A stretch of DNA of 47,464 nt, taken from positions 1 through 47,464 of the forward strand of contig VGKU01000001.1 of assembly GCA_016882235.1 (NCBI GenBank), written 5' to 3'. Below are positions 1 through 33,980 of the stretch, piece by piece (the stretch's first letter is position 1; the number at the start of each line of letters is the position of its first letter). The position numbers and the translations under genes were made by a program. The notes under the pieces are model-generated. The model was not told where the DNA came from. It did no database searches and worked only from the letters and a program-made list of their open reading frames with translations. The DNA is from Candidatus Parcubacteria bacterium (GTDB taxonomy: Bacteria; Patescibacteriota; Patescibacteriia; UBA9934; GWF2-40-263).

Positions 1-951
1 TCCGTGCCGGCTTATACGGTGAAACGCATTTTGGTGCCGCTCACGGACGAGTTTGACATCGTTCCGCCTTCGTCCCCTTGGATCAATACGGCGCTCTCTG
101 GCAAACAGCTGAAGAGCGCAACCGTCCAGTTTGACCCGCAAACCGGCACGCCAAATGTCCTTCTTCATTTTAACGCGGAAGGGGGAGAACTCTTTGGCAA
201 ATTAACCGAAGAGCATGTGGGAAGGCAGATCGCTATTTTTCTAGACGGGCAGGTGATTTCTTCACCGGTCGTCCAACAGGCGATCTACGGCGGGCAGGCG
301 GTGATTACCGGCGATTTCACGATTGAGGAATCAAAGCTTCTCGCCCAGGAATTGAACGCGGGCGCTCTGCCGGTGCCGATCAATTTGCTTTCCCAACAGA
401 CCGTCGGACCCACGCTCGGCATTATTTCGCTTGAGAAGAGCGTGCAAGCGGCGCTGCTCGGATTTGTGTTCGTTGCCGTTTTCATGATTGCTGTGTATCG
501 GCTGGGTGGGCTGGTGGCCGTTCTGGCGCTGACGCTTTTCGCCTTTCTCAACCTCGCGGCGTATAAGCTGTTTGGTGTTACGATTACGCTTGCCGGCATC
601 GCCGGATTTGTGCTCTCGCTTGGGATCGCCGTGGACGCCAATGTTCTCATCCTTGAACGGCTCAAAGAGGAGTACGCCTCCGGACGCGACCTTTCCTCGT
701 CGTTGGACGAAGCCTTTTCCCGCGCATGGAACGCGATCCGCGACGGGAATCTGACCACGCTGATCGCCGCGGCTGTTCTCTATTGGTTCAGCTCCAGTTT
801 TATCCGCGGATTTGCGCTGACCCTTTCTGTCGGCGTGATCCTCTCCATGTTCACCGCGATTCTGGTTTCTCGCGTCTATCTGAAAAATATTGTTGATTGG
901 AAATGGGCTCGCCGTCCATCGTTGTACGCCACCAAACGGCCAAACCTATGA
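1..951 (+). CDS. secD: Protein translocase subunit SecD (5'-truncated by window edge)
   Basis: The reading frame of ORF 4..951 stays open to nt 1. The C-terminal SecD/SecF-type multi-TM bundle is present (FVLSLGIAVDANVLILERLKEE). The stop overlaps the secF ATG (ATGA at 948-951). Confidence 0.9.
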   Translation, partial: SVPAYTVKRILVPLTDEFDIVPPSSPWINTALSGKQLKSATVQFDPQTGTPNVLLHFNAEGGELFGKLTEEHVGRQIAIFLDGQVISSPVVQQAIYGGQAVITGDFTIEESKLLAQELNAGALPVPINLLSQQTVGPTLGIISLEKSVQAALLGFVFVAVFMIAVYRLGGLVAVLALTLFAFLNLAAYKLFGVTITLAGIAGFVLSLGIAVDANVLILERLKEEYASGRDLSSSLDEAFSRAWNAIRDGNLTTLIAAAVLYWFSSSFIRGFALTLSVGVILSMFTAILVSRVYLKNIVDWKWARRPSLYATKRPNL

Positions 952-1847
952 AATTGTCTGTGATAAAAACCAGCCGTGTCTGGTTCATCCTTTCGGGAGC
1001 ACTGGTCGTCCTTTCGGTTGTGTTCGTTTTTGTCCCTGGCCTTACCTTCGGCATTGATTTTACGGGCGGGAGTTTAAGCGAAGTTATTTTTGAACAGATT
1101 CCGTCCGTTTCGGAGTTACGGACATCCGTGGAGACGGCCGGATACCGCGACGCGACGCTTCAAGCAACGGACGATGGGTACCTGATCCGTACGACGTCCC
1201 TCACGGAGGAAGAACACCAGTCGTTGTTGACGCAGTTGCGTGATACACACGGTACGTTGGAAGAGCGGCGTTTTGATTCCATTGGGCCGGTCATTGGGAA
1301 CGAACTGCGCCGCACGGCGCTGATCGGCGTTGCGCTGACGCTTGTGCTGATTGGGCTGTATGTCGCGTGGGCGTACCGCAAAGTATCCGAGCCCGTCGAT
1401 TCATGGAAATACGGCGCGATCACCATTTTGGCGGCGTTGCATGATGTGATCATTACGGTCGGCGCATTTTCCCTGTTGGGTTATTTCTTCGGGTGGGAGA
1501 TCGGCTCATCGTTTGTGGCGGCCGTGCTCACCATACTTGGATATTCCATCAACGATACGGTTGTGGTGTTTGACCGTACGCGCGAGAACTTGCTTAAGGG
1601 CGTCGGGGACGGGTTCGCCGATACGGTGGAGCGAAGCATTGAACAGACCCTCACACGCTCACTCTTTACGAGTTTAACCACGATTTTGGCCCTGCTTGCC
1701 ATTTTTCTCCTTGGTGGCGAGAGCACGCGTTCGTTTGCGCTCGCGCTCATCATCGGCATTTCCGTTGGAACGTATTCGTCCATTTTCTTAGCAAGTCCGT
1801 TGTTGGTGGCATGGGAGGGGAGGGGGAAGAACTCATCGGAAACGTAG
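948..1847 (+). CDS. secF: Protein translocase subunit SecF
   Basis: The in-frame ATG at 948 overlaps the secD stop. The SecF signature GYSINDTVVVFDRTREN is present with six hydrophobic segments. The ORF-track start at 897 is probably an over-extension. Confidence 0.9.
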   Translation: MKLSVIKTSRVWFILSGALVVLSVVFVFVPGLTFGIDFTGGSLSEVIFEQIPSVSELRTSVETAGYRDATLQATDDGYLIRTTSLTEEEHQSLLTQLRDTHGTLEERRFDSIGPVIGNELRRTALIGVALTLVLIGLYVAWAYRKVSEPVDSWKYGAITILAALHDVIITVGAFSLLGYFFGWEIGSSFVAAVLTILGYSINDTVVVFDRTRENLLKGVGDGFADTVERSIEQTLTRSLFTSLTTILALLAIFLLGGESTRSFALALIIGISVGTYSSIFLASPLLVAWEGRGKNSSET

Positions 1848-1899
1848 CCACGGGAGATGGGATGAGGAAGAAGGTGATGATCAGCCATGGCGAGTGACA

Positions 1900-1928
1900 T
1901 CGTCATGGTTTTATTTTTTTGCTATGAT
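1900..1928 (+). promoter_or_regulatory. Sigma70-like promoter candidate (TCGTCA-17-TGcTATGAT)
   Basis: TCGTCA at 1900-1905, a 17-nt spacer, TG at 1920-1921 and TATGAT at 1923-1928. The first ATG (1940) lies 11 nt after the -10 with no SD between. Confidence 0.3.
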
Positions 1929-1939
1929 GTGTGTATCCT

Positions 1940-3481
1940 ATGTTTCCCTTGTTCGCGATTCCTCTTATCGGCGAGGCTGTCACACAGACCCCGGCAGCTG
2001 TTTCTTATTTTGACCGTCCCATTGACGTGATGTTATTTGATGCCTTCGTTTGGTTCGGATGGATTCCGATTGTCACGACAGTGATTTGGGGAATCGTCAT
2101 CATGTGGCAAAACTACCGTGTCGGTCTGTATGTGTCCGGCTACAAATGGGTTGTGCTGGCGATTGATGTGCCGGCCATGACCGAGCAGACTCCCAAGGCT
2201 CTGGAAAACCTGTTCGCGACAATCTACGGCGCGAAATCCTCGCTCACCTGGAAAGAGCAGTGGGTCGTCGGAAAGGTCCAGCCCACATTTTCGTTTGAGA
2301 TCATCTCTACCGAAGGGTACATCCAATTTTTGGTGCGTACGCAAACGCGCTTTCGCGACAATATTGAGGCGGGTATTTACGCCCATTATCCTGACGCGGA
2401 AATTACGGAGGTGGAAGATTACGTCAAATATTTTCCCAGCAATTTTCCCGATGAAGAATACGATATGTGGGGAGGAGAATTTGTATTGGATAAGCCGGAA
2501 ATCTATCCGATCCGCACCTATGTGGATTTTGAAGACCGTCTGACGGGTGAAATCAAGGATCCACTCGGCCATACGCTTGAACAGTTGGCAAAGATGCGTC
2601 CGGGCGAACATTTTTGGATTCAATTTATCGTCCAGCCGCAAAGCAATGACTGGATGCAAGCGGGCGTGAACAAATTGAACGCTTTGTACGGGAAAAAAGC
2701 AAAGGTCAAGAAGAGTCCCATCATGAGCGCATTGGAATCCGTACTGGCCTGGCCCGTGGGAATGCTGGAGAATGTGACTGGCGCGGACCTGTCGTTTTTG
2801 TTCGGCGGCGCGGCAGAAGAAAAGAAAGAGCCCATGGTGTTTTTGCCTCTGCAAGAAACGAAAGAGGCGGAAGCCATTTATCACAAGATTGGCAAAGTGG
2901 GACTGTTGACCAAGATTCGTATCGTGTACATTGGCCGGAAAAACGTCTTTGTCAAAGTGGAACGCACAACAATGGTCAAAGGGATTCTGAACCAGTATAC
3001 GAATTTGACCCTCAACAAGTTTGCGTTGTTCATTCCACAAGTGCCTAAAGACGATTATTTTTGGATGCGTTGGGTGTATACAAAAAAGCAAAGGAACCTG
3101 ATGAACGGATACAAAACTCGCAACTGGGGGATCGGCGCCGATCCGTTTTATCTGAATGTGGAAGAGTTGGCGTCGTTATGGCATTTCCCGACGATCGGAT
3201 TCAAGCCGCCTCTGGTAAAGAAGGCCGAAGCGCGTCGCGCCGAACCGCCGGTCGGCCTGCCAATCACCCACGAAGAAATCACGTTTCCCGGTCTCACGGC
3301 CGAGCCGGAACTCCCGATTATGCCGTCGGAAGGATCGCCAGAAGCACCGGTTGCCCCTGAAGGGGAAACAAGCCCTGTGCCCGCCGATACGCTTTCCACG
3401 GCCGAGGTGCCGCGCGTAGAACCTCCGACCAAGCCGAAAGAGGATACGGACTCCTATGTCCCCCCCAATTTGCCGATGTAG
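1940..3481 (+). CDS. Hypothetical membrane-anchored protein, partner of the downstream VirD4/TraD-like ATPase
   Basis: 516-aa ORF (GTG 1931; first ATG 1940). It has N-terminal hydrophobic helices (FPLFAIPLIGEAV; VWFGWIPIVTTVIWGIVIMW; YKWVVLAIDV), a large soluble body and a Pro/Glu-rich tail. I recognise no family. Confidence 0.6.
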   Translation: MFPLFAIPLIGEAVTQTPAAVSYFDRPIDVMLFDAFVWFGWIPIVTTVIWGIVIMWQNYRVGLYVSGYKWVVLAIDVPAMTEQTPKALENLFATIYGAKSSLTWKEQWVVGKVQPTFSFEIISTEGYIQFLVRTQTRFRDNIEAGIYAHYPDAEITEVEDYVKYFPSNFPDEEYDMWGGEFVLDKPEIYPIRTYVDFEDRLTGEIKDPLGHTLEQLAKMRPGEHFWIQFIVQPQSNDWMQAGVNKLNALYGKKAKVKKSPIMSALESVLAWPVGMLENVTGADLSFLFGGAAEEKKEPMVFLPLQETKEAEAIYHKIGKVGLLTKIRIVYIGRKNVFVKVERTTMVKGILNQYTNLTLNKFALFIPQVPKDDYFWMRWVYTKKQRNLMNGYKTRNWGIGADPFYLNVEELASLWHFPTIGFKPPLVKKAEARRAEPPVGLPITHEEITFPGLTAEPELPIMPSEGSPEAPVAPEGETSPVPADTLSTAEVPRVEPPTKPKEDTDSYVPPNLPM

Positions 3482-3508
3482 GAGATAAGGTCTGATCCAG
3501 GAATTGCT

Positions 3509-5428
3509 ATGTCCAATCATCACGACCACGAACAAGAAGTGACGTATTTTGCGAAAACCAATTTTCGCAACTCCATGGTGAAGTTTGGGATCAAGACGGA
3601 TGACCGCCGGCGCCATGTCTACGTCATTGGGAAAACCGGCATGGGCAAAACCACCTTGCTGGAAAATTTTATTTTGTCCGATATCTACGCCGGCCATGGG
3701 TGTTGTTACGTGGATCCACACGGCGATACGGCCGAGAAGTTGGTTGATTACATTCCGTCCTGGCGCATTAACGACGTGGTCTACTTCAACCCGGCGGACA
3801 TGGATTTTCCGATCGGTTTTAACATCCTGGAGGCCGTGAGCGAACGGCATAAGCATCTGGTTGCAAGCGGGATGATGGGTGTCTTTAAGAAGATTTGGGA
3901 GAACATGTGGTCCTCGCGCATGGAGTACATTTTGAACAACACGATTTTGGCCCTGTTGGACAATCCCGGGCAGACACTCCTTGGTATCAACCGAATGCTT
4001 TCGGAGCAGGATTTCCGCAACCGCATGGTCGGCAATGTACGGGATCCGGTCGTCAAACAGTTTTGGCTGAAGGAGTTCGCCTCGTACAATGATAAATATG
4101 CGCAGGAAGCTGTTGCGCCGATCCAGAACAAGATCGGCCAGTTCCTGTCCGCGTCGGTCATTCGCAATATGGTGGCGCAGGTCAAATCCACCATCCATAT
4201 CCGCAACATCATGGACGAGGGAAAGATCTTTATCATCAACCTTTCCAAAGGTCGTATTGGCGAGGATAATTCGCGCTTGCTCGGCGGTCTTCTCATTACC
4301 AAATTACAGCTTTCCGCGATGGAACGCGTGGACATTCCCGAATCTGAACGCAAGGATTTTTACTTGTATGTGGACGAGTTCCAAAACTTCGCTGTGGAAT
4401 CGTTCGCAGGCATTTTGTCGGAAGCGCGTAAATACCGTTTGTGTTTGACCATGGCGCACCAGTACATCGCCCAGCTGACGGACGAGGTGCGCGAGGCGGT
4501 CTTCGGCAACGTCGGGACGCTCATCACCTACCGCGTTGGGTCGCCTGATGCGCTGTACATGGAGAAAGAGTTTACGCCGCGGTTTTTGCCGGAGGACATC
4601 ATCAATCTACCCAAGTTTAACGTCTATCTGAAATTATTGATTGATGGGGTGACGAGTCAGCCGTTTTCTGCGATCACTCTGCCGCCCATTTCCCAACGGA
4701 CGGAATCGGCAGAGCGCGTGATCCGTGTGTCGCGCGAGCGGTACGCGAATCCGCGTGCGGATATTGAGCAGAAGATTTTGGCGTGGAGCGGGATGGAGGA
4801 AGCGGATATGGACACACTGCTCGCTCAGGCGGCGGAGAAAAAGAAAGCGGCAAAGGCGGCAAAGAAGCCGAAGTTTGAGTACAACTGTACGCGCTGTAAC
4901 AAGGAGATGGTTTTGCCGGTCGAGCTGGACCGGTCGCGGCCGATTTATTGCGAAGAGTGCATTGAGATCGTGCGGGAAGAGCGCAAACACGGAAAAGGAA
5001 AAAAGCCAGAAGGGGGTGGCCGTGGACTCCCGCCAGCGCGAGAAGGGAATACGGAGGAAAAAAGTCGGGGTTCCCAGACTCCACCGGCAAAGACGCGCAC
5101 AGAGATAGTAGAGCGTCCGGTTGCAGAGAAGCCGGTCTCGCTTCAAACGCTGAAGCCCAAACCAGCCCTTCCCAGTAACCCTCCTGAAGGCGTGGGAGGT
5201 GATGGACCTCAAGATGTACCTGCGGCGCACACGGATTCTCGTCCGCGCCAAGAAGATGAACACATGCAGAAAAAGCGAAAACGGAACAGGAAGCGGAAAC
5301 CGAAAACGGAAGCGACGGCGCCACCAAAACCGGAACCGATCGCGCCATCCAAGCCATCTGTGCCTCCGCAAACGCCCAAGCAGACCTCTGGAACGTTGCG
5401 TCCTGGCCAATCCATTACCTTTGACTAG
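3509..5428 (+). CDS. VirD4/TraD/TraG-like (type IV coupling protein family) P-loop ATPase with C-terminal zinc ribbon and basic low-complexity tail
   Basis: Walker A GKTGMGKTT, DPHGD and Walker B FYLYVDEFQNF are present, followed by SEARKYRLCLTMAHQYIAQL...GNVGTLITYRVG. A CxxC-x17-CxxC motif sits at aa 460-484. The tail contains KKRKRNRKRKPK and PPKPEP repeats. There is no N-terminal TM helix. Confidence 0.8.
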   Translation: MSNHHDHEQEVTYFAKTNFRNSMVKFGIKTDDRRRHVYVIGKTGMGKTTLLENFILSDIYAGHGCCYVDPHGDTAEKLVDYIPSWRINDVVYFNPADMDFPIGFNILEAVSERHKHLVASGMMGVFKKIWENMWSSRMEYILNNTILALLDNPGQTLLGINRMLSEQDFRNRMVGNVRDPVVKQFWLKEFASYNDKYAQEAVAPIQNKIGQFLSASVIRNMVAQVKSTIHIRNIMDEGKIFIINLSKGRIGEDNSRLLGGLLITKLQLSAMERVDIPESERKDFYLYVDEFQNFAVESFAGILSEARKYRLCLTMAHQYIAQLTDEVREAVFGNVGTLITYRVGSPDALYMEKEFTPRFLPEDIINLPKFNVYLKLLIDGVTSQPFSAITLPPISQRTESAERVIRVSRERYANPRADIEQKILAWSGMEEADMDTLLAQAAEKKKAAKAAKKPKFEYNCTRCNKEMVLPVELDRSRPIYCEECIEIVREERKHGKGKKPEGGGRGLPPAREGNTEEKSRGSQTPPAKTRTEIVERPVAEKPVSLQTLKPKPALPSNPPEGVGGDGPQDVPAAHTDSRPRQEDEHMQKKRKRNRKRKPKTEATAPPKPEPIAPSKPSVPPQTPKQTSGTLRPGQSITFD

Positions 5429-5430
5429 CC

Positions 5431-6198
5431 ATGTCGATTTTTCACGCACTCACGCTCGGCCTCATCCAGGGCGTTACAGAATTTTTGCCGATTTCCAGCT
5501 CCGGATTTCTCGTTATTCTTCCGGAGCTTTTCGGTTGGCCACTCCAGAGCGTGACCTTTGATGCGGTGGTTCATTTAGGCACGCTTGCGGCTATCATTCA
5601 TGCCATGCGTTCTGACATCGCGTCGGCCTGGGCACACCAACGTCGGACCTTCTGGTGGATCACTGCCGCGACGGTGCCTGTGCTCGCGGCAGGTTTTGTG
5701 ATGGAACTTGTGCTGCAAGTGAATGTCCGTTCCACATCCATTGTCGCCATCTCGTTTGTTCTGTGGGGAATCGTCCTCTTGCTTGCGGACCGGTCTGCAA
5801 AGACCGTTTCGGATACCGTCCAAACGGTCGGATGGAAACGCTCCCTCGTGATCGGCCTGGCGCAAGTGATTGCACTCATTCCCGGCACATCCCGTTCGGG
5901 AATTACGATTTCTGCGGGACTGTTCGGCGGCCTTTCGCGCCAAACGGCTACGACATTTTCCTTTCTGCTTGGCATTCCAACCTTGTTTGTCGCAGGGATG
6001 TACAGCCTGTTTGAAGCGGTCCGAAATCCGACAACGGAAGCGTTCTGGCCATTGGCTGTTGGCGCGGTGACCGCTTTTCTTTCGTGTCTTGTGACCGTGC
6101 GTGCTGTGCGCGCGTGGCTTGACCGGCGCGGAACGTACGCCGGATTGGCTGTGTTCCGTCTTGTCGTCGGCTTGTTGTTGTTCGCATGGGTGCTGTAA
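5431..6198 (+). CDS. uppP: Undecaprenyl-diphosphate phosphatase
   Basis: The N-terminus LGLIQGVTEFLPISSSG and the motif PGTSRSGITI are typical of BacA/UppP. The protein is polytopic. Confidence 0.9.
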   Translation: MSIFHALTLGLIQGVTEFLPISSSGFLVILPELFGWPLQSVTFDAVVHLGTLAAIIHAMRSDIASAWAHQRRTFWWITAATVPVLAAGFVMELVLQVNVRSTSIVAISFVLWGIVLLLADRSAKTVSDTVQTVGWKRSLVIGLAQVIALIPGTSRSGITISAGLFGGLSRQTATTFSFLLGIPTLFVAGMYSLFEAVRNPTTEAFWPLAVGAVTAFLSCLVTVRAVRAWLDRRGTYAGLAVFRLVVGLLLFAWVL

Positions 6199-9268: not shown

Positions 9269-9520
9269 ATGCTCCATTATTTCTACGGCCAGGAATGTCC
9301 CCACTGCCACGCCATGATGCCACTTGTGGATAAGTTGATCGAGGAAGGGCTTCCCTTAAAAAAATACGAAACGTGGCACGATAAAAAGAACGCCGAATTG
9401 TTGGAGGAAAAGGATAAGGGTGCCTGCGGCGCCGTACCGTTTTTTTACAACGACGAAACGGGAAAAACGATTTGCGGTGCGGCATCAGAGGAGGAGGTAC
9501 GAACATGGGCAGGAACCTAA
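9269..9520 (+). CDS. Thioredoxin/glutaredoxin-fold protein (CPHC active site)
   Basis: MLHYFYGQECPHCHAMMPLVDKL gives a CxxC redox motif at the expected position of a small thioredoxin-fold protein. The ORF-track start at 9203 is an upstream extension. Confidence 0.7.
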   Translation: MLHYFYGQECPHCHAMMPLVDKLIEEGLPLKKYETWHDKKNAELLEEKDKGACGAVPFFYNDETGKTICGAASEEEVRTWAGT

Positions 9521-10449
9521 AGACCATTGCTCTTCTTTGTCTGATGACCCTCCTTGGGGCTGGGTGTGTTTCTCTGCCGGTTTCACAACAATCGCCCGAA
9601 GCAGCCGCGGCTGGGTTGCAACTGACGCCCGGAAGTGAATTGGTCCTCCGTGGGACCGTGTTCGGCCTTGGGGGAAAATTCGTAAAATTGTTCAAACAAG
9701 AAAACGCAGACACGCGTCTTCTTTTGGATCATTGGGAAGCGGGCGCACAGGCGCGAGCAACCTGGGAGCGCGTTTTGAAAAGAGAAACAGAGGAATCAAA
9801 AAAAGCGACACAGGACTATTACGCGCAGTATGCCAGCGCGCCCATTGGGACAAAAGCGCCCGAGCCGCCTGAACCGGTCTACGTGACCCATACGGAAACC
9901 GGGATTCTGGAAACTGAAGCACTCTCCAACGCGACCTCCATCCACCTCCCCCTCTTTTGGATACAAGGCCAGACGGGCGGGCAGGGAAGCGGACTCATCT
10001 GGCTTTCGCAGACGCAGTATCGGGAACTATTTGAAACACGCAAAACGGACATCAATCTCGGATTGTTTGACGATTCCGTTTCCTATGCGATAGGACTCAC
10101 CGACCATGTGAAGAGTCTGGTGGAGCGTCTGCGCGGGTCCACAGAGCCGCCGGAAGAGCAAAACGTGTTGGAAGTGAAGGCGGATATCAATTGGGGCGAA
10201 TATGTTCTCACAGTGGACGGCGTTTCCACCACCGTGCAAGCGATCCGTGCGCAAAACGCGTTCGCCCGCTACACGATTCTTGCCAACGAGCAGAATCCGC
10301 TCATTCTTGAAATCATGGTCTCACCAGCCACACGCGGCTCTCTGAATCTTTTTACACGAGACGCGCTCGGCAAGGCGTTTTGGGGGTACGAGGTGGTCTC
10401 TATCACTCGTGCAGACGCTCCACCCAGTGCGGATCCACCTCAACCGTAA
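9505..10449 (+). CDS. Hypothetical lipoprotein
   Basis: MGRNLKTIALLCLMTLLGAGC has a lipobox (LGAGC) and is preceded by the SD GGAGGAGG. I recognise no family. Confidence 0.6.
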   Translation: MGRNLKTIALLCLMTLLGAGCVSLPVSQQSPEAAAAGLQLTPGSELVLRGTVFGLGGKFVKLFKQENADTRLLLDHWEAGAQARATWERVLKRETEESKKATQDYYAQYASAPIGTKAPEPPEPVYVTHTETGILETEALSNATSIHLPLFWIQGQTGGQGSGLIWLSQTQYRELFETRKTDINLGLFDDSVSYAIGLTDHVKSLVERLRGSTEPPEEQNVLEVKADINWGEYVLTVDGVSTTVQAIRAQNAFARYTILANEQNPLILEIMVSPATRGSLNLFTRDALGKAFWGYEVVSITRADAPPSADPPQP

Positions 10450-14181: not shown

Positions 14182-15318
14182 ATGGCACGATGGTTTTTTT
14201 CCTTAGGACTGATGATCTTTTTTCCGCTTGCCGTCTTTGCCGCAAACGCAGATTTAGGCATCAGCACCAACGACATGCGGTTTTCCAAGGAATCGCTCGT
14301 CGCGGGTGAAACGATTCGGTTATACGCGCGGATCCATAATGAAGGAGAAACGGACATGACCGGGTACGTGACGTTCTTCCAGGGCAATGTCGCGCTTGGA
14401 AACTCGCAAGTGCTTTCGGTGCTTAAAAATGGCGCGCCCGAAGAGGTCTTCATTGATTTTGTCGTCCCGGCGAGCACGTTCAATATTCGCGCGGAAATCC
14501 GCGGCACAGAACCGACGGATACCAATACGGCAAACGACACGGCCATCACCGCGATGCTGGAGCCCATGCAGGACGGTGACGCAGATGGTATTTCTGACGG
14601 ATCGGACAACTGTCCGTCGGTTGCCAATACCGATCAGCGCGATGCGGACGGGGACGGGGCTGGCAATGCGTGCGACAATGACGATGATAACGACGGGGTT
14701 AGCGACGCGGTGGAGGCAGAATTGGGTGTAGACCCGCTCAACGCGGATACGGATGCGGACGGCACGGCCGATGCGGATGATGCCTACCCGAATGATCCAA
14801 CCTTGCAGATGCAACCGAAACCTCTTCCGGCACCGGTAAAAAAAGTGTTTAAACAGGTCGTGGCAAAGGTCGCGGAGGGGATTCGGGAAGAAGAGGAGAA
14901 GGTTGCAAAAACGGAGGAGGTCCAAGAGCCGCATGTTCTACCGCTCCAGACAGAAACGCTGACCTTTTCGCCCAACGCGGTTTTTTCGTATGCGCATGAC
15001 CGCTGGAATACGTTTACCTTCCGCGTGGAAGGCGCGACGGCAGTGTACCGGTATGAGTGGGATTTCGGCGACGGCGTACGTTCAAATAAGACGGACATCT
15101 CGCATACCTATGAGCACAGTGGCGCGTTTGAGGTCACGCTCGCCATCCGCGATGCCGAAGGCCGTACCGCGAGCGAACGCGCGACCGTTCTCGTGCCGTT
15201 TTTCTCTTTGCAAAATCCGATGGTTCTTGTTCTCCTGCTCTTTCTCTTTTCTCTGCTCATTCTCGGCGGATGGGCGTATTGGGGATTGAGAGGGAAGGGG
15301 GAACACGTCCCAGAGTAG
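14182..15318 (+). CDS. Secreted, C-terminally anchored surface protein with thrombospondin type-3 Ca-binding repeats and a PKD domain
   Basis: It has a signal peptide (FFSLGLMIFFPLAVFAANA). Asp-rich repeats follow (DGDADGISDGSDNCPSVANTDQRDADGDGAGNACDNDDDNDGVSD...). A PKD-like YEWDFGDG...HTYEHSGAFEVTL and a terminal TM are present. Confidence 0.75.
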   Translation: MARWFFSLGLMIFFPLAVFAANADLGISTNDMRFSKESLVAGETIRLYARIHNEGETDMTGYVTFFQGNVALGNSQVLSVLKNGAPEEVFIDFVVPASTFNIRAEIRGTEPTDTNTANDTAITAMLEPMQDGDADGISDGSDNCPSVANTDQRDADGDGAGNACDNDDDNDGVSDAVEAELGVDPLNADTDADGTADADDAYPNDPTLQMQPKPLPAPVKKVFKQVVAKVAEGIREEEEKVAKTEEVQEPHVLPLQTETLTFSPNAVFSYAHDRWNTFTFRVEGATAVYRYEWDFGDGVRSNKTDISHTYEHSGAFEVTLAIRDAEGRTASERATVLVPFFSLQNPMVLVLLLFLFSLLILGGWAYWGLRGKGEHVPE

Positions 15319-22931: not shown

Positions 22932-24365
22932 GTGAGCACAGATCTCGCCAGAAATACCCTGTATTTGACCGTCGCTTCCGTCGGACAAAAACTGATCGCG
23001 TTTGTCTATTTTTTGTTTCTGGCGCGGGTGATGGAACCGGAGTTGACCGGCCTGTACTTCCTTGCCATTTCCATCGCCATGATTTTTTCTGTGCTGGCAG
23101 ATTTTGGCATCACGCCCGTCACCATCCGAGAAATCGCCGCGCATCCGGAACAAACACACACCCTGTTCCGCCGAGCGCTCGCCGTCAAAATCCCGCTCCT
23201 TCTCATTGGCTACCTCTTGACGATCCTCTGCGTTCCCGTGCTCGGCTACAGCCGCGAACTCCTCCCCTTGGTCGCTCTCTCCGGCCTCTCACTCGTTTTG
23301 GATTCCATCCACTTGTTGTTTTACGGCGTTCTGCGCGGCCACCAACAGCTTCAGTTTGAAGCGATCGGAATGTTTTGTGGACAGGTGATCGTTGTGATGA
23401 TCGGTGGCGCAGCGCTCTTTTTTTATCCCTCTATTCCGTTGCTCCTTACCGCACTCGTTTCTGGCAGTGCGTTCAATGTGTTCGTGTCTGCCACCACGGT
23501 TGTGAAACGGTTTGGCTGGCAGATGCTTGTGCCGGACGCTGAACGCACGTTTAGCATGCGCCTGATCCACATGGCGTTCCCGTTTGCACTTTCCGCCATC
23601 TTTGTCAAAGTGTATTCCTACATCGACACCGTCTTCATTTCAAAATTTCTTACGACCTCCGCTGTCGGACTCTATAGCGTCGCCTACAAGCTCACCTACG
23701 CATTCCAATTTATCCCGCTGTCCTTTACCGCCGCGCTGTATCCAAACTTCAGCGCGATGCTTCAACGCGAGCCCGCGGCAGCTGCTTCGCTCCTGCGCCG
23801 AGCGCTCTGGTACATGCTCATCGTTTCTACCCCCATCACGCTGGGCCTCTGGCTGATTGCCGAACCACTCGTCCTGCTTGCGGGCGCATCCTATGCGCCG
23901 TCCGCGCCCGTGCTCGCCGTGCTCGTGTTTGTGCTCATTCCGATCTTTCTGGATTTTCCGATCGGTTCGCTGCTGAATGCCGCGGGCCGACAGGCGACGA
24001 AAACAGCGATCATGGGGGCAACGATGGTCGTCAATGTCCTCTTCAACATCTTGCTGATTCCGCGTATCGGCGTTCTGGGCGCCGCCTATGCCGCGCTTGC
24101 TAGTTTTCTGTTTATGTTTCTTGCCGGATTGTGGGCCGTGCGTGGCCTTGTTCCCTCATTCAGCTTCACCGCGTTCCTGCGCGACCTGTCGTGGATCCTG
24201 TTGAGCGGCGGCGTCATGGCGGCAATCGGACGCCTTGCGTTGCCCGCCATCGGTTGGATCGCCGTGATTCCGCTGTGCGCGCTGGTCTATGGTCTCGCGC
24301 TTGTTGCCACCCGTTCGTTTACGAAAGCGGACTGGGTGAAAGTCCGGTCGCTCACGCGCGTATGA
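22932..24365 (+). CDS. Wzx-like polysaccharide/oligosaccharide flippase (MOP superfamily)
   Basis: 477 aa with about 12-14 TM segments. The N-terminus LTVASVGQKLIAFVYFLFLAR is typical of PST/Wzx flippases. The start is GTG. Confidence 0.72.
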   Translation: MSTDLARNTLYLTVASVGQKLIAFVYFLFLARVMEPELTGLYFLAISIAMIFSVLADFGITPVTIREIAAHPEQTHTLFRRALAVKIPLLLIGYLLTILCVPVLGYSRELLPLVALSGLSLVLDSIHLLFYGVLRGHQQLQFEAIGMFCGQVIVVMIGGAALFFYPSIPLLLTALVSGSAFNVFVSATTVVKRFGWQMLVPDAERTFSMRLIHMAFPFALSAIFVKVYSYIDTVFISKFLTTSAVGLYSVAYKLTYAFQFIPLSFTAALYPNFSAMLQREPAAAASLLRRALWYMLIVSTPITLGLWLIAEPLVLLAGASYAPSAPVLAVLVFVLIPIFLDFPIGSLLNAAGRQATKTAIMGATMVVNVLFNILLIPRIGVLGAAYAALASFLFMFLAGLWAVRGLVPSFSFTAFLRDLSWILLSGGVMAAIGRLALPAIGWIAVIPLCALVYGLALVATRSFTKADWVKVRSLTRV

Positions 24366-25396
24366 ACCGTTTGCTTCTGGTGACGCTTGACTATCCGCCC
24401 AATCGCGGAGGCGTCGCACGCTACCTCGGGCGGTTGGCGGAGTTTCTGGGCGATCGTCTGCAGGTCGCCTCCTCGCCGAGCGATCTGCTTGGCACTGTTT
24501 GGCCATCCTGGATGAAGAGTGTCCGCTTGTTGATCCGCCGGCGGGGTGAGTATGACATCGCGCTCGTGAGCCATCTCCTCCCGCTTGGAACAGCGGCGAT
24601 GGTGGCTGGATGGATCACAAAAAAACCCTACATCGTGATTGTGCACGGCATGGATGTGCGATTGGCGTCACGCAACGGATGGAAACGCGTGCTTGCCGGT
24701 CGTATTCTCCAAGGGGCGCGTGTGGTCGTTGCCAATTCCAGCGCCCTTGCACGGGAAGTTACCGCGCGCTTCGCCGCGTCGTCGGTCGTGGTGTATCCGT
24801 GTGTGGAGAACATTGAGACATCTCTTCAAACGCCAAGACGTGAGCCGCACACCTTTGGGATTCTCACCGTCGGCCGGCTGGTTGCGCGCAAGGGCCATCT
24901 CAGCGTGCTCAGAGCGCTTGCACGGCTCAAGCAGGAGGGAAGGATCGGAGCGTTTCGATATGACATCGTTGGCGATGGCCCTCTGCGCGCGGAGATCCTC
25001 CAAACCGCCGATCAACTCGGTGTAAACGAAGTCATGGTCCATGCGGATACGTCTGATGAAACACTCGCAGAATTTTATGCCGGTGCCGACCTGTTCGTGA
25101 TGCCCGTGCTGGACGATCCCATTGACAAAGAAGGATTCGGCCTTGTGTTTCTGGAAGCAGCGGCCTACGGTGTGCCTTCCGTGGCGTCACGGATAGAAGG
25201 CGTGGACGAAGCGGTCTTAGATGGACAAACCGGCCTCCTGGTCAAACCCGGGGATGTGGCGGAACTCGCCAATGCCCTCGCGCGGCTCGTGGCAGACGCG
25301 GCGTTTCGCGAGCGACTGGGACTGCACGCGCGGATGCGCACGAAGGAGGAGTTCACCTGCGCTGTTCAATGCAAAAAATTAGTGCCCTACCTGTGA
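24362..25396 (+). CDS. Family 4 (GT-B) glycosyltransferase
   Basis: The ATG at 24362 overlaps the flippase stop (ATGA). The E-x7-E region EGFGLVFLEAAAYGVPSVAS is present. Confidence 0.85.
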   Translation: MNRLLLVTLDYPPNRGGVARYLGRLAEFLGDRLQVASSPSDLLGTVWPSWMKSVRLLIRRRGEYDIALVSHLLPLGTAAMVAGWITKKPYIVIVHGMDVRLASRNGWKRVLAGRILQGARVVVANSSALAREVTARFAASSVVVYPCVENIETSLQTPRREPHTFGILTVGRLVARKGHLSVLRALARLKQEGRIGAFRYDIVGDGPLRAEILQTADQLGVNEVMVHADTSDETLAEFYAGADLFVMPVLDDPIDKEGFGLVFLEAAAYGVPSVASRIEGVDEAVLDGQTGLLVKPGDVAELANALARLVADAAFRERLGLHARMRTKEEFTCAVQCKKLVPYL

Positions 25397-26100
25397 ACGA
25401 CATTTCCGTGATTATCCCGACCTACCAGCACGCCGCCACGATCGGCGCATGCATCCGTTCGCTCCTCTCGCAAACCGAACAGCCGTCGCAAATCATTGTT
25501 GTGGACGACGGCTCTACAGATTCCACGCGCGAACTTGTCAGGACGTTTGGAGAACAGGTATCGTACGTGTATCAGGCCAATCAAGGAGCGCCGAACGCGC
25601 GCAATGCCGGCGCGGCACTTGCCACGGGCGCGTTTCTGCTGTTTTGCGATGCGGACGTCATCGCCGAGCCAGAGATGCTCAAACGTCTCCGCGAAACGCT
25701 CACAGCGCATCCTGAAGCGTCCTATGCGTATAGTGGATTCCGGTGGGGCACCCGCCGGTTCCGCGCACGGCCGTTTGATCCCGAAGCCCTGCGGAAAAAC
25801 AATTACATTCATTCGGCCTCGCTCATCCGCTCCTCTGACTTTCACGGGTTTGACCCGACGCTGAAGCGATTTCAAGATTGGGACGTGTGGCTCACCATGC
25901 TTGAGCGCGGACAGCACGGTGTGGCGATAGATGCAGACCTTTTTCAGATCCAACACGTACCGGGCAGGCAAGGGATTTCCGCGTGGCTCCCCTCCATCGC
26001 GTATCGCCTCCCGTGGCGACTGATTGGGTGGAAACCAAAAGCCCTTCGAGCGTACGAAGCAGCACGCGAAGTGATTGTGAAAAAACATTCCCTTTCATGA
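25369..26100 (+). CDS. Family 2 glycosyltransferase
   Basis: ISVIIPTYQ, VVDDGSTDST and the DAD motif (FCDADV) are present. An alternative GTG start at 25393 forms a GTGA overlap with the GT4 stop. Confidence 0.8.
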   Translation: MQKISALPVNDISVIIPTYQHAATIGACIRSLLSQTEQPSQIIVVDDGSTDSTRELVRTFGEQVSYVYQANQGAPNARNAGAALATGAFLLFCDADVIAEPEMLKRLRETLTAHPEASYAYSGFRWGTRRFRARPFDPEALRKNNYIHSASLIRSSDFHGFDPTLKRFQDWDVWLTMLERGQHGVAIDADLFQIQHVPGRQGISAWLPSIAYRLPWRLIGWKPKALRAYEAAREVIVKKHSLS

Positions 26101-26942
26101 TTTCCACCATTACCGTCAACTACAAAACGGCGGATTATCTTGAGCGGATGCTGGAGTCACTGTTCGCGCACCATACACGAGGGGAGCTGGATGTGATTGT
26201 CGTGGAAAATGCATCAGGCGACGACCTGTCGCGCGTGGAGGAACGCTTTCCGAGCGTGCGTCTCATTCGGAGTGAAGGCAACCGCGGGTTCGCCGGAGGA
26301 TGCAATTTGGGAATCGCGAATGCATACGGGGATTTCATCGTTCTGCTCAACCCAGACATCGTCTTTACCTCCCCCGCACTTTACGAAATCCGTGAGGCGA
26401 TGGTTCGTGATCCGCGCGTCGGCATCGGCGGCATCTCCCTGAAAAATTTGGATGGATCGCAACAGAAGTGCGTCTGGAGGTTCCCAACGCCGACGGATCA
26501 GTTGTTCTTATTGTTGAAGATTCCTCATCTGTTCCCACGGATGGCTTCCATCGCCCGGTGGCGGATGGATGACTTTGACTACACGCAAAGCGCGGATGTC
26601 AACCAAGTCATGGGTGCATTTTTTTGCATCAAGCGGGAGGTGCTTGAACAGATCGGGGCGCTGGATGAAGGATTTTTTATGTGGTACGAGGAGGTGGATT
26701 TTTGCAAACGCGCAAATACGGCAGGCTGGCGCGTGCGATACGTTGCGCATATTTCCGCGAAACACAAAAAAGGAAGCAGTTTTGACCGCGTGTCAACCTT
26801 GAAGAAACAAGCGTTCTTGCGCCGGAGCATCCGCCACTATCTGCGCAAGCATCATGGGAAGGCTATTGGCACCTTGTTCTGGCTTCTGGAACCGGTGTTT
26901 GTGTTGTGTGCCTTTGTGGCTTCTCTGATCAAGCCGATCTAG
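26097..26942 (+). CDS. Family 2 glycosyltransferase (rhamnosyl/WbbL-like)
   Basis: The ATG at 26097 overlaps the previous stop (ATGA). ISTITVNYKT, VVENASGD, GFAGGCN and LLNPD are present. Confidence 0.8.
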   Translation: MISTITVNYKTADYLERMLESLFAHHTRGELDVIVVENASGDDLSRVEERFPSVRLIRSEGNRGFAGGCNLGIANAYGDFIVLLNPDIVFTSPALYEIREAMVRDPRVGIGGISLKNLDGSQQKCVWRFPTPTDQLFLLLKIPHLFPRMASIARWRMDDFDYTQSADVNQVMGAFFCIKREVLEQIGALDEGFFMWYEEVDFCKRANTAGWRVRYVAHISAKHKKGSSFDRVSTLKKQAFLRRSIRHYLRKHHGKAIGTLFWLLEPVFVLCAFVASLIKPI

Positions 26943-26959
26943 CTGGACGCCAGACAGGT

Positions 26960-28486
26960 ATGCGCGAACAATTTTTTCATCAACACTTTTGGGGAGGACT
27001 CGCCGCGATGTTCGTGGCCTGTCTTGTAGCCATCTTCGCCTATCGGTTTGACGCAGGTCTTTTCCCGCTTGCTTTTGCAGCGGTCTTCACGGCCGTCCTG
27101 GCCGCGCGCGAGCCGTCGCTTGGCCTCGCCGCCGTCTTTGGAGAGCTTTTCTCAAATCCGCACGGCCATCTCTTTTTTTTCGACGATCTCGCCATCCCCG
27201 TTTCTCTGCGCATGGCCGTCTTCATCGGCTTTTTTGTCGGCTGGGCGGTCTTCTTCATTCGCACCGGCACGCTTCCGCACCTTCACGCATGGCGTTTCGC
27301 TCCGCTCATTCCCCTGACGCTTGCGATTCTCATCGGCTTTACGGTCGGCCTTGCGTCCCAGCCGACGCTGGATGCGTTCAAGGACGGCAACGCCTATCTC
27401 TACCTGCTCTATGCCTTCCCGATCCTGACGACCGAATGGACATCCGCGCGCAAACATCAACTCCTGCAACTGTTCGCCGCTGGCGCGGTTTGGAATCTGC
27501 TGCTCACGCTTGTCATCCTGTATGTGTTCACCCATTTTGACGAGGGTATCCTGCGCTCAAGCTATGTGTTCCTGCGCGATATTCGCCTTGCCGAAATTAC
27601 CAACCTCGGCAACGGCACGCATCGTATTTTCATCCAATCGCAATTTTTCACCCTGGCGTTGGGCGCGCTTCTCCTCGCGTTCATGAGTTTTTCTCACAGA
27701 AAAATAGTGCCTGCTTCTGTCGCGCTGGGTTCGGTGATCGCAGTGATTCTCCTCTCGCTTTCGCGCAGTTTCTGGATAGGAATCGCTGCGGCTTTTCTCG
27801 TCCTTCTCATCCTGCTTGCTCGTTCCGGCGTGCGCGCGTGGTTTCCTCTGGCTCTGCGCACATTCCTTGGCGGCGTCTTCGCGATCATCCTTATCCTTGT
27901 CGTCGCCCTGTTTCCCTTGCCTTCACAACGATTGGGCGGGGGAGAACTCGCCGACGCCCTCCGCCGGCGCAGTGAAACGGACGTCGCCGTTTCCAGTCGC
28001 TGGGCGCTCATCCCTCCCATGAAAAACGCCATCGCAGAACATCCCGTTTTTGGCAGTGGATTCGGTCAACGCGTTTCGTTTATCACGGACGACCCACGCG
28101 CGCGCGAACTGCGTCCAGACGGCGTCTGGTCCACCTATGCGATGGAGTGGGGTTGGTTGGAACTCTGGCTAAAAATGGGAATCCTGGGACCTCTGGGTTT
28201 CCTGTTCCTTTTCGTTTCGCTTGTCGTGCAACTCCTGAAACAAAATACCCACCAAGCGTGGGTCGGTATCGGTTTGGTCTCTGGTCTGGTTTTCTTATAC
28301 GCGACGCACGCCTTTTCTCCGTATCTCAATCATCCGATCGGACTGGGATTCTTGCTTTTCACCATGGCTTTTCTTCCCACACCAGCGCACCCAATCCCCC
28401 AAACGGCCGTCCCCACGGGCCTCCCGCTCTTAAAACAAACACGCGCTCCCTCTTCGGCGGTTTCCTTACAAAGCGAAGTAAAATAA
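26960..28486 (+). CDS. O-antigen ligase/polymerase-like polytopic membrane protein
   Basis: About 12 TM segments. The LSLSRSFWIGIAAAF segment and a large periplasmic loop are typical of the Wzy_C/O-antigen ligase family. The first ATG lies after the previous stop. Confidence 0.62.
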   Translation: MREQFFHQHFWGGLAAMFVACLVAIFAYRFDAGLFPLAFAAVFTAVLAAREPSLGLAAVFGELFSNPHGHLFFFDDLAIPVSLRMAVFIGFFVGWAVFFIRTGTLPHLHAWRFAPLIPLTLAILIGFTVGLASQPTLDAFKDGNAYLYLLYAFPILTTEWTSARKHQLLQLFAAGAVWNLLLTLVILYVFTHFDEGILRSSYVFLRDIRLAEITNLGNGTHRIFIQSQFFTLALGALLLAFMSFSHRKIVPASVALGSVIAVILLSLSRSFWIGIAAAFLVLLILLARSGVRAWFPLALRTFLGGVFAIILILVVALFPLPSQRLGGGELADALRRRSETDVAVSSRWALIPPMKNAIAEHPVFGSGFGQRVSFITDDPRARELRPDGVWSTYAMEWGWLELWLKMGILGPLGFLFLFVSLVVQLLKQNTHQAWVGIGLVSGLVFLYATHAFSPYLNHPIGLGFLLFTMAFLPTPAHPIPQTAVPTGLPLLKQTRAPSSAVSLQSEVK

Positions 28487-32585: not shown

Positions 32586-33980
32586 TTACAGAGCGGCTTC
32601 CAGGATTTCCGAGGTGGTCATGATCGGTTCTCCAAGTGGATGTAACAAGACGGCGCGTTCACCGGTCCAGACGACTTGGCTGAACTTCCATCCGAATGCC
32701 GCAAAGGTCGCTTCGTCTTGGATCACGCGACGCGTGCCGTCCGTCACGACAAAAATATCCGGCGATCCAGTGGCACCCATGAGGGTCCCGTCCGCAAAGG
32801 GAAGTGGGGTGCCGGTCGCATACGCGTCAAGGTCCGACGGCGCGACCGGAGTGATGGTCGCAGCGGGAAAACGGGTCAGCAAAATCTCGCGGGACAACAG
32901 CGGGTGCTTCATGCCGTTTTGTACGAAAAAGACCCCGCCGGTTGACCGATTTTGCAAAAGCGTCCCTTGTGGATAGAGCGTCTGGGTCGTGATCGGTTCA
33001 CCTTCGCGATACGCGTCCAAATCTTCCCATGCGACATCGACAATCTCATCCCCATTGAACCCATACGCGCGCAGGGCCTCCTGCGAAACAAACCCGCGAC
33101 GCGTGTCATCCACAATCAGATACACCGTTCCGCGTGGCGACCGCAGGAGCGAATAGTTCGGAAAACGAATCGGCCGGCCCATCGGATAGGTTTCAATCGT
33201 TTGTGCGCTTGCCGTCACGACGCTTGCCGGATTGAAACGGGAAAAAAACGCGATCCGGGATGTGATCGGCCGGCGCAAGCCGTTTTGGATGAGCCAAATG
33301 CCGCCGGTCTCACGGTCCTGTAAGAGGGTACCATCCACATGTCGCCGGTTGAACCAGCGCTGCCAAATGCGAACGAAGTTCTGGTTGCCATGCAGGTGCG
33401 GCGTATACGTATATAAAACGGCTGTGGCGTTATTGGATGGTACGACGCTGACGCCGTCAATCTGTGTGGTGCGTCCGGGGCCAATGCCCGATTCGGTAAA
33501 TCCACGCCGTTCCAAATCGTTCAGGTAGGATTCACGAATGCGCTTGGCTGCGTAATACACCTGGTTGCCAAACCCTTTGAATTTTTGGATGGCTGGGTCC
33601 TGTTTAGAACAATCATCGCACACCGCGTATCCCATCGCCCAGTTCAGTTGATCCTCTGTCGGACGAGGATCCTCCACCAAACTCTGTTCGCGTTGAAGTA
33701 AGACGAGCAAAAACTGTGGATTGATGCCAAACTGTTCAGAAGCATCCCAGACGATGTCCGCCGCGCTTTTGGGTCGTCCGCTGGCGTCTGGTCCCATATA
33801 CCTCGCAAGGGACCCGCGTGAAAGCAACAGGGCAAGGTCGCTTTTGGTGGTGGAATAAACGTCCAGCAGATCCGCGTCCGTTGCGAGTTCGTTCGGATTA
33901 AACGCAAACAACGCCTGCGGCACCGCAAGCGTTGTCAACCAAAGGACAACGAGCCTTTTTTTGAGGGAAACAAAACGCAT
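32586..33980 (-). CDS. Secreted protein: N-terminal conserved domain plus four ~60-aa tandem repeats
   Basis: The internal ATG at 33980 gives the signal peptide MRFVSLKKRLVVLWLTTLAVPQALFA. The repeats are LLQDRETGGIWLIQNGLRRPI, LLRSPRGTVYLIVDDTRRGFV, LLQNRSTGGVFFVQNGMKHPL and LMGATGSPDIFVVTDGTRRVI. Confidence 0.65.
   Translation of the reverse strand: MRFVSLKKRLVVLWLTTLAVPQALFAFNPNELATDADLLDVYSTTKSDLALLLSRGSLARYMGPDASGRPKSAADIVWDASEQFGINPQFLLVLLQREQSLVEDPRPTEDQLNWAMGYAVCDDCSKQDPAIQKFKGFGNQVYYAAKRIRESYLNDLERRGFTESGIGPGRTTQIDGVSVVPSNNATAVLYTYTPHLHGNQNFVRIWQRWFNRRHVDGTLLQDRETGGIWLIQNGLRRPITSRIAFFSRFNPASVVTASAQTIETYPMGRPIRFPNYSLLRSPRGTVYLIVDDTRRGFVSQEALRAYGFNGDEIVDVAWEDLDAYREGEPITTQTLYPQGTLLQNRSTGGVFFVQNGMKHPLLSREILLTRFPAATITPVAPSDLDAYATGTPLPFADGTLMGATGSPDIFVVTDGTRRVIQDEATFAAFGWKFSQVVWTGERAVLLHPLGEPIMTTSEILEAAL

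Follow-up and report, generated by a model that had tools for sequence, protein, structure and literature searches.

Analysis of a 47,464-nt contig from a Candidatus Parcubacteria bacterium (GenBank assembly GCA_016882235.1, contig VGKU01000001.1; this whole stretch is referred to as the window) revealed two adjacent genes between secDF and uppP, which encode a membrane-anchored protein of the family DUF8128 (here termed the anchor) and an ATPase related to the type IV coupling proteins (T4CPs). Comparison with single-chain homologues joining both halves indicates that the pair is a split member of a previously undescribed coupling-protein subfamily. This subfamily is linked to type IV secretion system (T4SS)-type systems, and its N-terminal half is a VirB4-N-domain-like module and not the classical two-helix transmembrane domain (TMD). 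Our preferred reading, to which we assign a probability of about 50%, is that the split motor feeds the T4SS of Patescibacteria. Both open reading frames (ORFs) were confirmed as described in an initial annotation made before any database search, including the 27-nt spacer (3482–3508) and, in the second ORF, Walker A, DPHGD (aa 69–73), Walker B and the motif SEARKYRLCLTMAHQYIAQL...GNVGTLITYRVG (aa 304–344); the coordinates of all features are collected in Table 1.

Profile searches with the ATPase exceeded the Pfam gathering scores of three families, namely TrwB_AAD_bind (43.3 versus 20.5), TraG-D_C (24.9 versus 22) and T4SS-DNA_transf (22.8 versus 20.1), and hhalign against TrwB gave an alignment of 263 columns that begins ahead of Walker A and ends past Walker B (26% identity, probability 94.6, E = 6.8e-8), bearing out the T4CP likeness proposed initially. 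Residues G41, K42, T43, G44, M45, G46, K47 and T48 of Walker A were invariant in the ATPase alignment (A2), as were the Walker B residues save L286, and the latter motif aligned with the Walker B region of TrwB. The approximately 235 residues between the two motifs align, with gaps, to the region of the TrwB all-alpha domain, and helices are predicted there in a low-confidence model with a predicted local distance difference test score (pLDDT) of 51. TrwB and DotL were the only sequence matches in the PDB, both of them weak (TrwB phmmer E = 6e-4), and there was no curated NCBIfam equivalog, the best full-length model being the CD1115 VirD4-like family with 41 bits against a cut-off of 250. We therefore classify the ATPase, on sequence grounds, as a divergent member of the T4CP (TrwB/VirD4) lineage. 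An interpretation as the ATPase half of a split VirB4 was rejected because the protein belongs to the TrwB and not to the VirB4 lineage: hhalign against VirB4/TrwK aligned the P-loop only (probability 4.5), and the NCBIfam VirB4 models reached 12–14 bits. A replacement of FtsK was likewise rejected for want of an FtsK signature, as Pfam FtsK_SpoIIIE remained at 16.3 bits (cut-off 24) over the P-loop only (aa 20–60) with no gamma domain, and because an ftsK gene is annotated in TM7x (PMC10768705).

Only 40 hydrophilic residues precede Walker A, and the part of the ATPase scanned (aa 1–440) contained no 19-residue window with a Kyte–Doolittle (KD) hydropathy above 0.97, in agreement with the earlier view that this protein carries no transmembrane (TM) helices. 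Beyond the ATPase domain lies a zinc ribbon that recurs in 24 of 26 aligned homologues and is doubled in seven of them; in the orthologue of a related locus (L168), TIGR04272 scored above its cut-off (37.4 versus 36). The subsequent tail carries a net charge of +5 to +25 in full-length homologues and closes with a conserved GxxxxGQxIxF[DE] terminus. We regard zinc ribbon, basic tail and C-terminal motif as additions of this ATPase lineage.

PADLOC returned a match of mad8, a component of the MADS defence system, to aa 33–353 of the ATPase (59.4 bits), which is stronger than that of TrwB_AAD_bind and suggests that mad8 itself may be a TM-less ATPase of the T4CP/HerA type. This match, together with weak HerA matches, is what would speak for an anti-phage defence component of MADS-like or HerA type, a function that we consider highly improbable. 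The mad8 match probably reflects shared T4CP/HerA-type ancestry, and the fixed core synteny described below is unlike that of a defence island. Moreover, DUF8128 had no PADLOC match at all and the one L168 neighbour scanned matched no mad family, so that no mad1–mad8 set was recovered in the PADLOC run on the pair and that one protein, and no typical defence function, such as a methyltransferase, was found among the other window ORFs scanned.

The body of the upstream protein, which could initially be placed in no family, is assigned to PF26449 (DUF8128) in precomputed annotation, as are all 120 best homologues; the local Pfam and NCBIfam copies gave no match for the anchor or for 29 divergent members, the local Pfam copy being without a PF26449 model. 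Translation probably starts at ATG 1940 and yields a product of 513 aa, because the database copy has this length and homologues align from that Met. Where the initial annotation had proposed two to three N-terminal helices, hydropathy scan and AlphaFold2 (AF2) model agree on a single pronounced TM segment: KD exceeds 1.6 in 19-residue windows beginning at aa 31–41 (covering about aa 31–59), and the model contains one long helix at 31–69. The N-terminal flank of this helix has a net charge of −2 and the C-terminal flank contains R63/K72, from which, by the positive-inside rule, an N-out, C-in orientation with a cytoplasmic body may be expected. The body ends in a conserved EELAxLWHFP...KAPLVKK motif and is followed by the acidic, Pro-rich tail noted before, which is disordered in the model and negatively charged across 26/26 aligned homologues (−7 to −28), so that the tails of anchor and ATPase are oppositely charged. 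The anchor tail ends in a conserved VPPNLPM (nt 3458–3478; family form [VI]PPNLP[VIM]), and a PxNLP end was found in 104 of 149 diverse DUF8128 representatives.

Foldseek searches of the PDB with the DUF8128 model placed R388 TrwK/VirB4 chains on top (E = 6.4e-4, probability 1.00, TMq 0.33, ~443 columns), while searches of BFVD retrieved phage G gp156 (5e-16), a 913-aa protein of phage JL (6e-14), a protein of Bacillus phage Slash (1e-13) and the VirB4-like gp155 of phage G (4e-6). By these structural matches, the predicted DUF8128 fold resembles the VirB4 N-terminal domain. Alignment of DUF8128 by hhalign was not significant with phage G gp155 and weak with JL gp150, and, at the sequence level, the DUF8128 profile found nothing beyond a chance match in the PDB. 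It is worth mentioning that a low-confidence helix joining the two subdomains (nt 2720–2780, aa ~263–283) aligns near a hydrophobic, TM-like segment of gp156 (aa 182–207); this helix could be a membrane-dipping element.

The connection between the two proteins became apparent from homologues in which both halves form one polypeptide. A tblastn search of 50,697 phage records with the window ATPase gave phage G gp156 (825 aa) as the best match (27.6% identity, E = 1e-37), and the same search with the anchor matched only the DUF8128 region of gp156 (E = 6e-4). Profile alignment assigned aa 17–322 of gp156 to the DUF8128 domain (hhalign E = 1.3e-9 and 1.6e-11) and aa 377–789 to the ATPase (probability 99.9, E = 4e-36); the gp156 sequence contains neither a TM helix ahead of the DUF8128 domain nor a CxxC motif. 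In Geobacillus phage TP-84, protein ATP06113.1 (754 aa) matched both halves as well (E = 1.4e-6 and 1.3e-11). On a plasmid of Embleya sp. NBC_00896, WP_331738717.1 (812 aa) comprises one N-terminal TM helix followed by RTRLRRRR, a colinear, weakly DUF8128-like region (aa 70–396; E = 1e-3, 314 columns) and an ATPase (aa 411–779; hhalign probability 100, E = 8e-44); as far as its weak N-terminal match allows, this protein appears as the two window proteins joined end to end. The Embleya gene lies in the order PrgI (VirB3-like), XF1762, VirB4-like (P-loop_TraG, AAA_10, TraC_F_IV), fused T4CP, Replic_Relax and NlpC/P60, which we assign from its gene content to the monoderm T4SS-type clusters.

Several further observations concern the surroundings and relatives of the fused proteins. 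Phage G (L170, 87.7–93.3 kb) contains a mini T4SS-like cluster in which a TrbL/VirB6-like protein with six TM segments (gp153), a small hydrophobic protein (gp154) and a VirB4-like protein (gp155; P-loop_TraG/AAA_10) precede gp156 and an HNH endonuclease. In the Herelleviridae phage JL (L171, gp149–gp155), the fused gp150 is followed by a relaxase-like Replic_Relax gene, with a StbA/ParM-like gene nearby. In TP-84 (L173, 30.5–32.8 kb), a small membrane protein precedes the fused protein, and RecB-like and single-strand annealing protein (SSAP) genes lie downstream; the ~11-kb stretch viewed contained no T4SS genes, the fused gene standing among early, replication and recombination genes. Relatives of the gp156 N-domain were found in 30 records of Bacillus, Geobacillus, Brevibacillus and deep-sea thermophilic phages. 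Plasmid relatives amounted to 294 records (Streptomyces, Bacillus, haloarchaea, Sulfolobus and others), mostly typed as non-mobilizable. The closest plasmid relative of the ATPase, from Sulfitobacter mediterraneus (L174, 99994–101181; 41% identity, E = 1e-94), is a stand-alone, TM-less protein of 395 aa encoded on a non-mobilizable plasmid of this alphaproteobacterium, with a DUF3768 gene on one side and transposases on the other, and no DUF8128 partner is annotated near it.

Far from being an orphan, as the initial annotation had it, the anchor belongs to a large family. A profile built from 26 homologues retrieved 2,679 clusters (50% identity) at E<=1e-3 and 888 at E<=1e-30, and DUF8128 is present in at least 555 species-representative genomes. 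All 2,679 clusters measure 218–691 aa and none is fused to an ATPase. Informative names among the carriers were all of Patescibacteria, namely Uhr-, Falkow-, Magasanik-, Kerfeld-, Komeili- and Buchananbacteria and one 'Paceibacter', and the carrier genomes looked up are assigned to GTDB class ABY1 in Table S1 of PMC12102498. The pair is also carried by CP129476.1 and OZ246408.1, which count among the complete or high-quality Patescibacteria genomes. Locus L047 and other carrier contigs bear the titles 'uncultured Gammaproteobacteria bacterium' or 'Candidatus Binatia bacterium'; because their secD/secF are 50–75% identical to those of the window, these titles are best taken as placeholders or mis-binnings and not as evidence of the module outside Patescibacteria.

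Of 126 related loci that could be evaluated, 108 have the ATPase gene directly after DUF8128 in the same orientation: 66 of 72 in the species-representative set (median gap between tblastn matches 104 nt) and 42 of 54 in a second set, headed by highly divergent metagenome members, in which one more locus has the ATPase 2.3 kb off; in L004 and L169 the two genes overlap by 4 nt. Adjacency, whose obligate character the initial annotation had proposed to survey, thus holds for most loci and fails in about 14% of them. Among the exceptions is a coherent sub-lineage whose genes run sigma-r4/HARE-HTH, DUF8128, GT4, DUF4012 and DUF11, in which sigma-r4 stands for sigma-70 region 4. This arrangement was seen in the Falkowbacteria-like loci L052, L075, L082, L083, L085, L104, L115 and L152, where DUF8128 is followed by GT4, a DUF4012 protein of 840–920 aa and a DUF11 surface-type protein in place of the ATPase. 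A third conserved gene was noted directly 5' of DUF8128 in 62 non-Uhrbacteria loci (L168:8819-9934, L169:8808-9977, L075:4846-5871 and 59 more) and is absent from the window. Its product of 340–390 aa combines an N-terminal sigma-r4 with a C-terminal HARE-HTH domain like that of the RNA polymerase delta subunit (TIGR04567, 38–40 bits versus a cut-off of 42), and the gene stays beside DUF8128 even where the ATPase has moved off. From the fusions and the conserved adjacency together, we propose a single functional unit of anchor and ATPase, whose gene was divided within the linker joining the two domains. The same two lines of evidence support the initial suggestion of a membrane anchor provided in trans by the upstream protein, and a complex of the two proteins is the expected arrangement.

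Regarding conservation, median identities to the window proteins were 68–71% for the ATPase, 38–41% for DUF8128, 57–62% for SecD and 49–54% for SecF, and in 64 of 65 loci the ATPase surpassed SecD in conservation, a pattern indicative of strong purifying selection on the ATPase. We regard the pair as a core module passed on vertically in a large clade of Patescibacteria, whose checked members belong to GTDB class ABY1. A decayed conjugative element or prophage remnant, passively carried along, would be in keeping with the closest non-Patescibacteria relatives residing on phages and plasmids and with the slightly low GC content of the anchor gene (0.489 at 2001–3000 versus ~0.55 overall). Similar GC dips occur in other housekeeping genes, however, and no relaxase, VirB4, integrase or pilin-like gene was found among the larger window ORFs (Pfam scans), no repeats mark a mobile element in the window, and tRNA and Rfam scans of the window gave zero matches. 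Together with the selection on the ATPase, the recurrence of the same locus with the same housekeeping neighbours in many species and lineages across the named candidate phyla effectively refutes a remnant; the initial annotation had been right to set aside a decayed integrative and conjugative element.

The position next to secDF is a widespread feature. A secF gene lies 5' of the pair on the same strand in 56 of 69 and 27 of 47 evaluable loci, across candidate phyla, and the order secD-secF-(sigma-r4/HARE-HTH)-DUF8128-ATPase was observed in loci titled Uhr-, Komeili-, Kerfeld-, Buchanan- and Paceibacter, while the Falkowbacteria-titled loci contain the pair and the sigma-r4/HARE-HTH gene with no secDF match. 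Some T4CPs translocate proteins. One might thus read the place after secD-secF as the sign of a Sec-linked, protein-handling ATPase with a role in protein export or membrane-protein biogenesis, all the more so as secA lies a few kb upstream of the pair in L001 and L169. Such a role nevertheless appears improbable, since neither protein shows homology to any Sec component, many lineages have another gene between secF and the pair, and none of the fused homologues stands near sec genes in the contexts viewed. In the window itself, a hairpin resembling a terminator and a promoter-like site lie between secF and the pair. Both sites are consensus pattern matches only, promoter-like sites are no commoner in this region than expected by chance and constitute weak evidence, and the one at hand would leave ATG 1940 with a very short leader or none.

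Returning to the coupling of the split motor to a T4SS, we propose that the anchor would recruit the ATPase to the cytoplasmic face of the membrane and probably regulate it, after an ancestral gene had been split in the linker between the DUF8128 and ATPase modules. The ATPase would presumably oligomerise at the membrane, possibly as a hexamer in physical complex with the anchor, and ATP hydrolysis would pass a substrate to a membrane channel. This substrate would most likely be nucleic acid or nucleoprotein, as judged from T4CP ancestry, zinc ribbon and basic tail, and the channel would most likely be the chromosomal, conjugation-derived T4SS encoded elsewhere in most Patescibacteria genomes. 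Coupling to a T4SS is suggested by family precedent, by the T4SS clusters of the fused forms and by a Patescibacteria T4SS with almost no T4CP gene beside virB4: according to PMC12102498, VirB4 occurs in 2,417 of 3,035 Patescibacteria genomes and T4CP homologues in 2,918 (96%), with 148 of 5,713 homologues near virB4. These counts and the T4SS-type clusters of Embleya and phage G also tell against the self-contained motor of the initial annotation, although the pair may be autonomous, given its presence in two assemblies listed as VirB4-negative.

Several findings weigh against this T4SS-coupled reading. No T4SS gene was found in the 47-kb contig or in seven annotated related loci, nor in the remainder of the ~165 loci examined (5–10 kb flanks), where the screen covered the ATPase, SecD/F and several further neighbouring genes. 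Table S1 of PMC12102498 lists the pair-carrying GCA_001791045.1 and GCA_001791455.1 as VirB4-negative, as it does 13 of the 28 Uhrbacteria rows read, these listings coming from draft metagenome-assembled genomes. For S. epibionticum, the same article reports a dispensable t4cp homologue, in contrast to essential T4SS genes. The conservation of the ATPase is far above that of usual T4SS parts and fits a housekeeping substrate better, and the loci with non-adjacent genes loosen the link between the two proteins. In addition, hhalign of DUF8128 against TrwK/VirB4 and against TrsD and TrsE of pSK41 gave no significant match, so that the similarity to VirB4 is structural only (TM-score ~0.33), and the AlphaFold model of the ATPase, built on an alignment both too shallow and too similar, has the low pLDDT mentioned above.

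Some of these findings would be better accommodated by an exapted, autonomous motor, that is, a housekeeping, membrane-tethered DNA or nucleoprotein translocase that works alone or with a channel such as ComEC in DNA uptake, DNA export or chromosome handling at division. Besides the two VirB4-negative assemblies, the patchy occurrence of VirB4 in Uhrbacteria and the dispensable t4cp of S. epibionticum, this view can draw on the wider distribution of T4CP homologues than of VirB4 in the counts given above, and exaptation has been raised in PMC12102498. An ATPase more conserved than SecD, the zinc ribbon and basic tail added in this lineage, the putative DNA-binding sigma-r4/HARE-HTH protein encoded directly 5' of DUF8128 in 62 loci, and the TP-84 homologue amid replication and recombination genes point in the same direction. 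To our knowledge, on the other hand, all characterised T4CPs work with a T4SS, and the fused relatives of Embleya and phage G stand within T4SS-type clusters. Moreover, the VirB4-negative calls stem from drafts, and the annotated ftsK of TM7x would make a replacement of FtsK unneeded at least there. We hold an exapted motor to be a tentative alternative, of appreciably lower probability than T4SS coupling. We would give no greater weight to its combined form, in which a split T4CP fixed beside secDF in the core genome would act, in a major branch of the Candidate Phyla Radiation, as a T4SS-independent, membrane-tethered nucleic-acid translocase with the VirB4-N-domain-like DUF8128 as anchor and regulator, the domain pair of Bacillus and Geobacillus phages then being an unrecognised DNA-handling motor.

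Comparison with known systems places the split motor among several partial precedents. The fused proteins (Embleya WP_331738717.1, gp156, TP-84 ATP06113.1 and JL gp150) share the ATPase subfamily and N-terminal domain of the window pair, and the Embleya protein also shares the single N-terminal TM helix of the anchor. They differ in being one polypeptide on mobile elements, whereas the window pair consists of two chromosomal, vertically inherited genes whose products have gained oppositely charged disordered tails, C-terminal end motifs and a zinc ribbon. The TraG-TraJ pairs of R27 represent a case related to the TMD-less T4CPs with a membrane partner. The latter are a recognised subtype, exemplified by TraJ/TraI of pIP501, in which the partners are small membrane proteins (PMC7434980). 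The window pair resembles TraJ/TraI in that a T4CP without TMD is encoded beside a presumed membrane anchor; it differs in the size of the partner (513–516 aa with a ~370-aa conserved cytoplasmic domain) and in its housekeeping context without a nearby T4SS or relaxase gene, TraJ/TraI being part of the tra set of a conjugative plasmid.

The window ATPase and TrwB of R388 have homologous nucleotide-binding domains, the similarity reaching from Walker A past Walker B. TrwB possesses a TMD of two N-terminal helices, and its gene neighbours that of the relaxase on a plasmid with T4SS genes. The window ATPase is only distantly akin to TrwB, has no TMD and bears the additional C-terminal zinc ribbon and basic tail; it thus shows the ATPase domain of a classical T4CP and lacks both a TMD of its own and the relaxase/T4SS gene context. 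VirB4 (TrwK), which is often found with VirB3 fused or bound to it, offers the same layout of membrane element, N-domain and P-loop ATPase along with the Foldseek matches of DUF8128, but DUF8128 has no detectable sequence similarity to the VirB4 N-domain or TrsD, and the ATPase half is of the T4CP lineage. FtsK/SpoIIIE, as membrane-anchored P-loop DNA pumps of the same superfamily with long disordered linkers, resemble the pair in general construction and differ in possessing a gamma domain, while the anchor of the window pair is a separate protein. The 'orphan' Patescibacteria T4CPs of Quinonero-Coronel et al. 2025 (PMC12102498) are probably the same genes, and the accessible text of that article contains no mention of a partner protein, split architecture, fused homologues, secDF synteny or extreme conservation. 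Neither VirD4 nor T4CP appears in the main text of Wang et al. 2023, and literature searches (full-text for 'DUF8128', and on the phage fused proteins) returned no papers. Partner family, split-gene reading, fused homologues, VirB4-N-like fold, secDF synteny and degree of conservation were accordingly not found in the literature searched and would be new relative to it.

Table 1. Features of the gene pair and its immediate neighbours in the window
Feature	Position (nt)	Strand	Basis
secD, cut off by contig end	4-951	+	Pfam; conserved upstream neighbour
secF	897-1847	+	Pfam; conserved upstream neighbour
Terminator-like hairpin and T-run between secF and anchor gene	1883..1920	+	Consensus scan; 11-bp stem then TTATTTTTTT
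Promoter-like site TCGTCA-17-TATGAT with TG, just 5' of anchor gene	1900..1928	+	Consensus scan
Putative anchor/adaptor subunit, DUF8128 (PF26449)	1931..3481	+	Mechanical ORF from GTG 1931; 516 aa
Predicted single transmembrane helix, ~aa 33-59	2027..2107	+	Hydropathy scan, AF2 model
Globular DUF8128 body, aa ~70-436, two alpha/beta subdomains	2138..3238	+	AF2 pLDDT mostly 80-93
Disordered acidic Pro-rich tail, aa 445-516, net charge -11	3263..3478	+	AF2 model, sequence
Putative motor subunit, TM-less TrwB/VirD4-type (T4CP) ATPase, 639 aa	3509..5428	+	Pfam, NCBIfam, hhalign
Walker A GKTGMGKTT, aa 41-49	3629..3655	+	Read from sequence
Walker B FYLYVDEFQNF, aa 284-294	4358..4390	+	Read from sequence
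CxxC-x17-CxxC zinc ribbon, aa 460-484	4886..4960	+	Sequence; Pfam zf_Tbcl_2, TIGR04272 below cut-off here
Disordered basic Pro-rich tail with conserved C-terminal motif GTLRPGQSITFD (nt 5390-5425)	4961..5425	+	Sequence
uppP/bacA	5431-6198	+	Pfam; begins 2 nt past ATPase stop

In the window, uppP is probably co-transcribed with the ATPase gene; this neighbour is not conserved in the family, and the genes 3' of the pair differ in L001, L168 and L169. Antisense ORFs over the pair (2033-3091, 3176-4198 and 4634-5449) resemble shadow ORFs of GC-rich coding sequence. The remainder of the window is of housekeeping character, as all family matches in a Pfam scan of the larger ORFs belong to housekeeping genes. 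Besides secD, secF and uppP, it contains an HD protein, mnmA, era, trmA-like, corA, murJ, alaS, an infA-rpsM-rpsK-rpsD-rpoA-rplQ-rplM-rpsI run, a polysaccharide cluster with glycosyltransferases, fmt, priA, clpB, gltX, ftsQ, alr, a lysS/asnS-type aminoacyl-tRNA synthetase and a penicillin-binding protein. Two ORFs, 9472-10449 (+, 325 aa) and 32586-34103 (-, 505 aa), gave no Pfam/NCBIfam match, and the former was rejected on comparison as a candidate for the sigma-r4/HARE-HTH gene of other lineages. Between corA and murJ, the ORF 14182-15318 (+) encodes a probable surface or adhesion protein of 378 aa that contains thrombospondin type-3 repeats and a PKD domain. In the polysaccharide cluster, the ORFs 22932-25396, 25369-26942 and 26906-28486 (+) overlap by 28–235 nt as mechanically listed, and several true starts are therefore probably located further downstream.

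Overall, the analysis would give the family PF26449, with ~2,700 clusters at 50% identity in at least 555 species, a concrete structural and evolutionary identity, and the same applies to a set of unannotated phage and plasmid proteins. The near-universal 'orphan' T4CPs of Patescibacteria gain a candidate partner, at least in the lineages sampled, and the ATPase ranks among the most conserved proteins of its locus. If the split motor indeed feeds the T4SS reported to be essential for the epibiotic growth of Saccharibacteria, it would be the missing substrate receptor of that system. If it has been exapted, it would represent a novel translocase with a housekeeping role in a radiation that is very large and uncultivated, possibly serving DNA uptake, DNA export or chromosome handling in cells reliant on nucleotides from a host.

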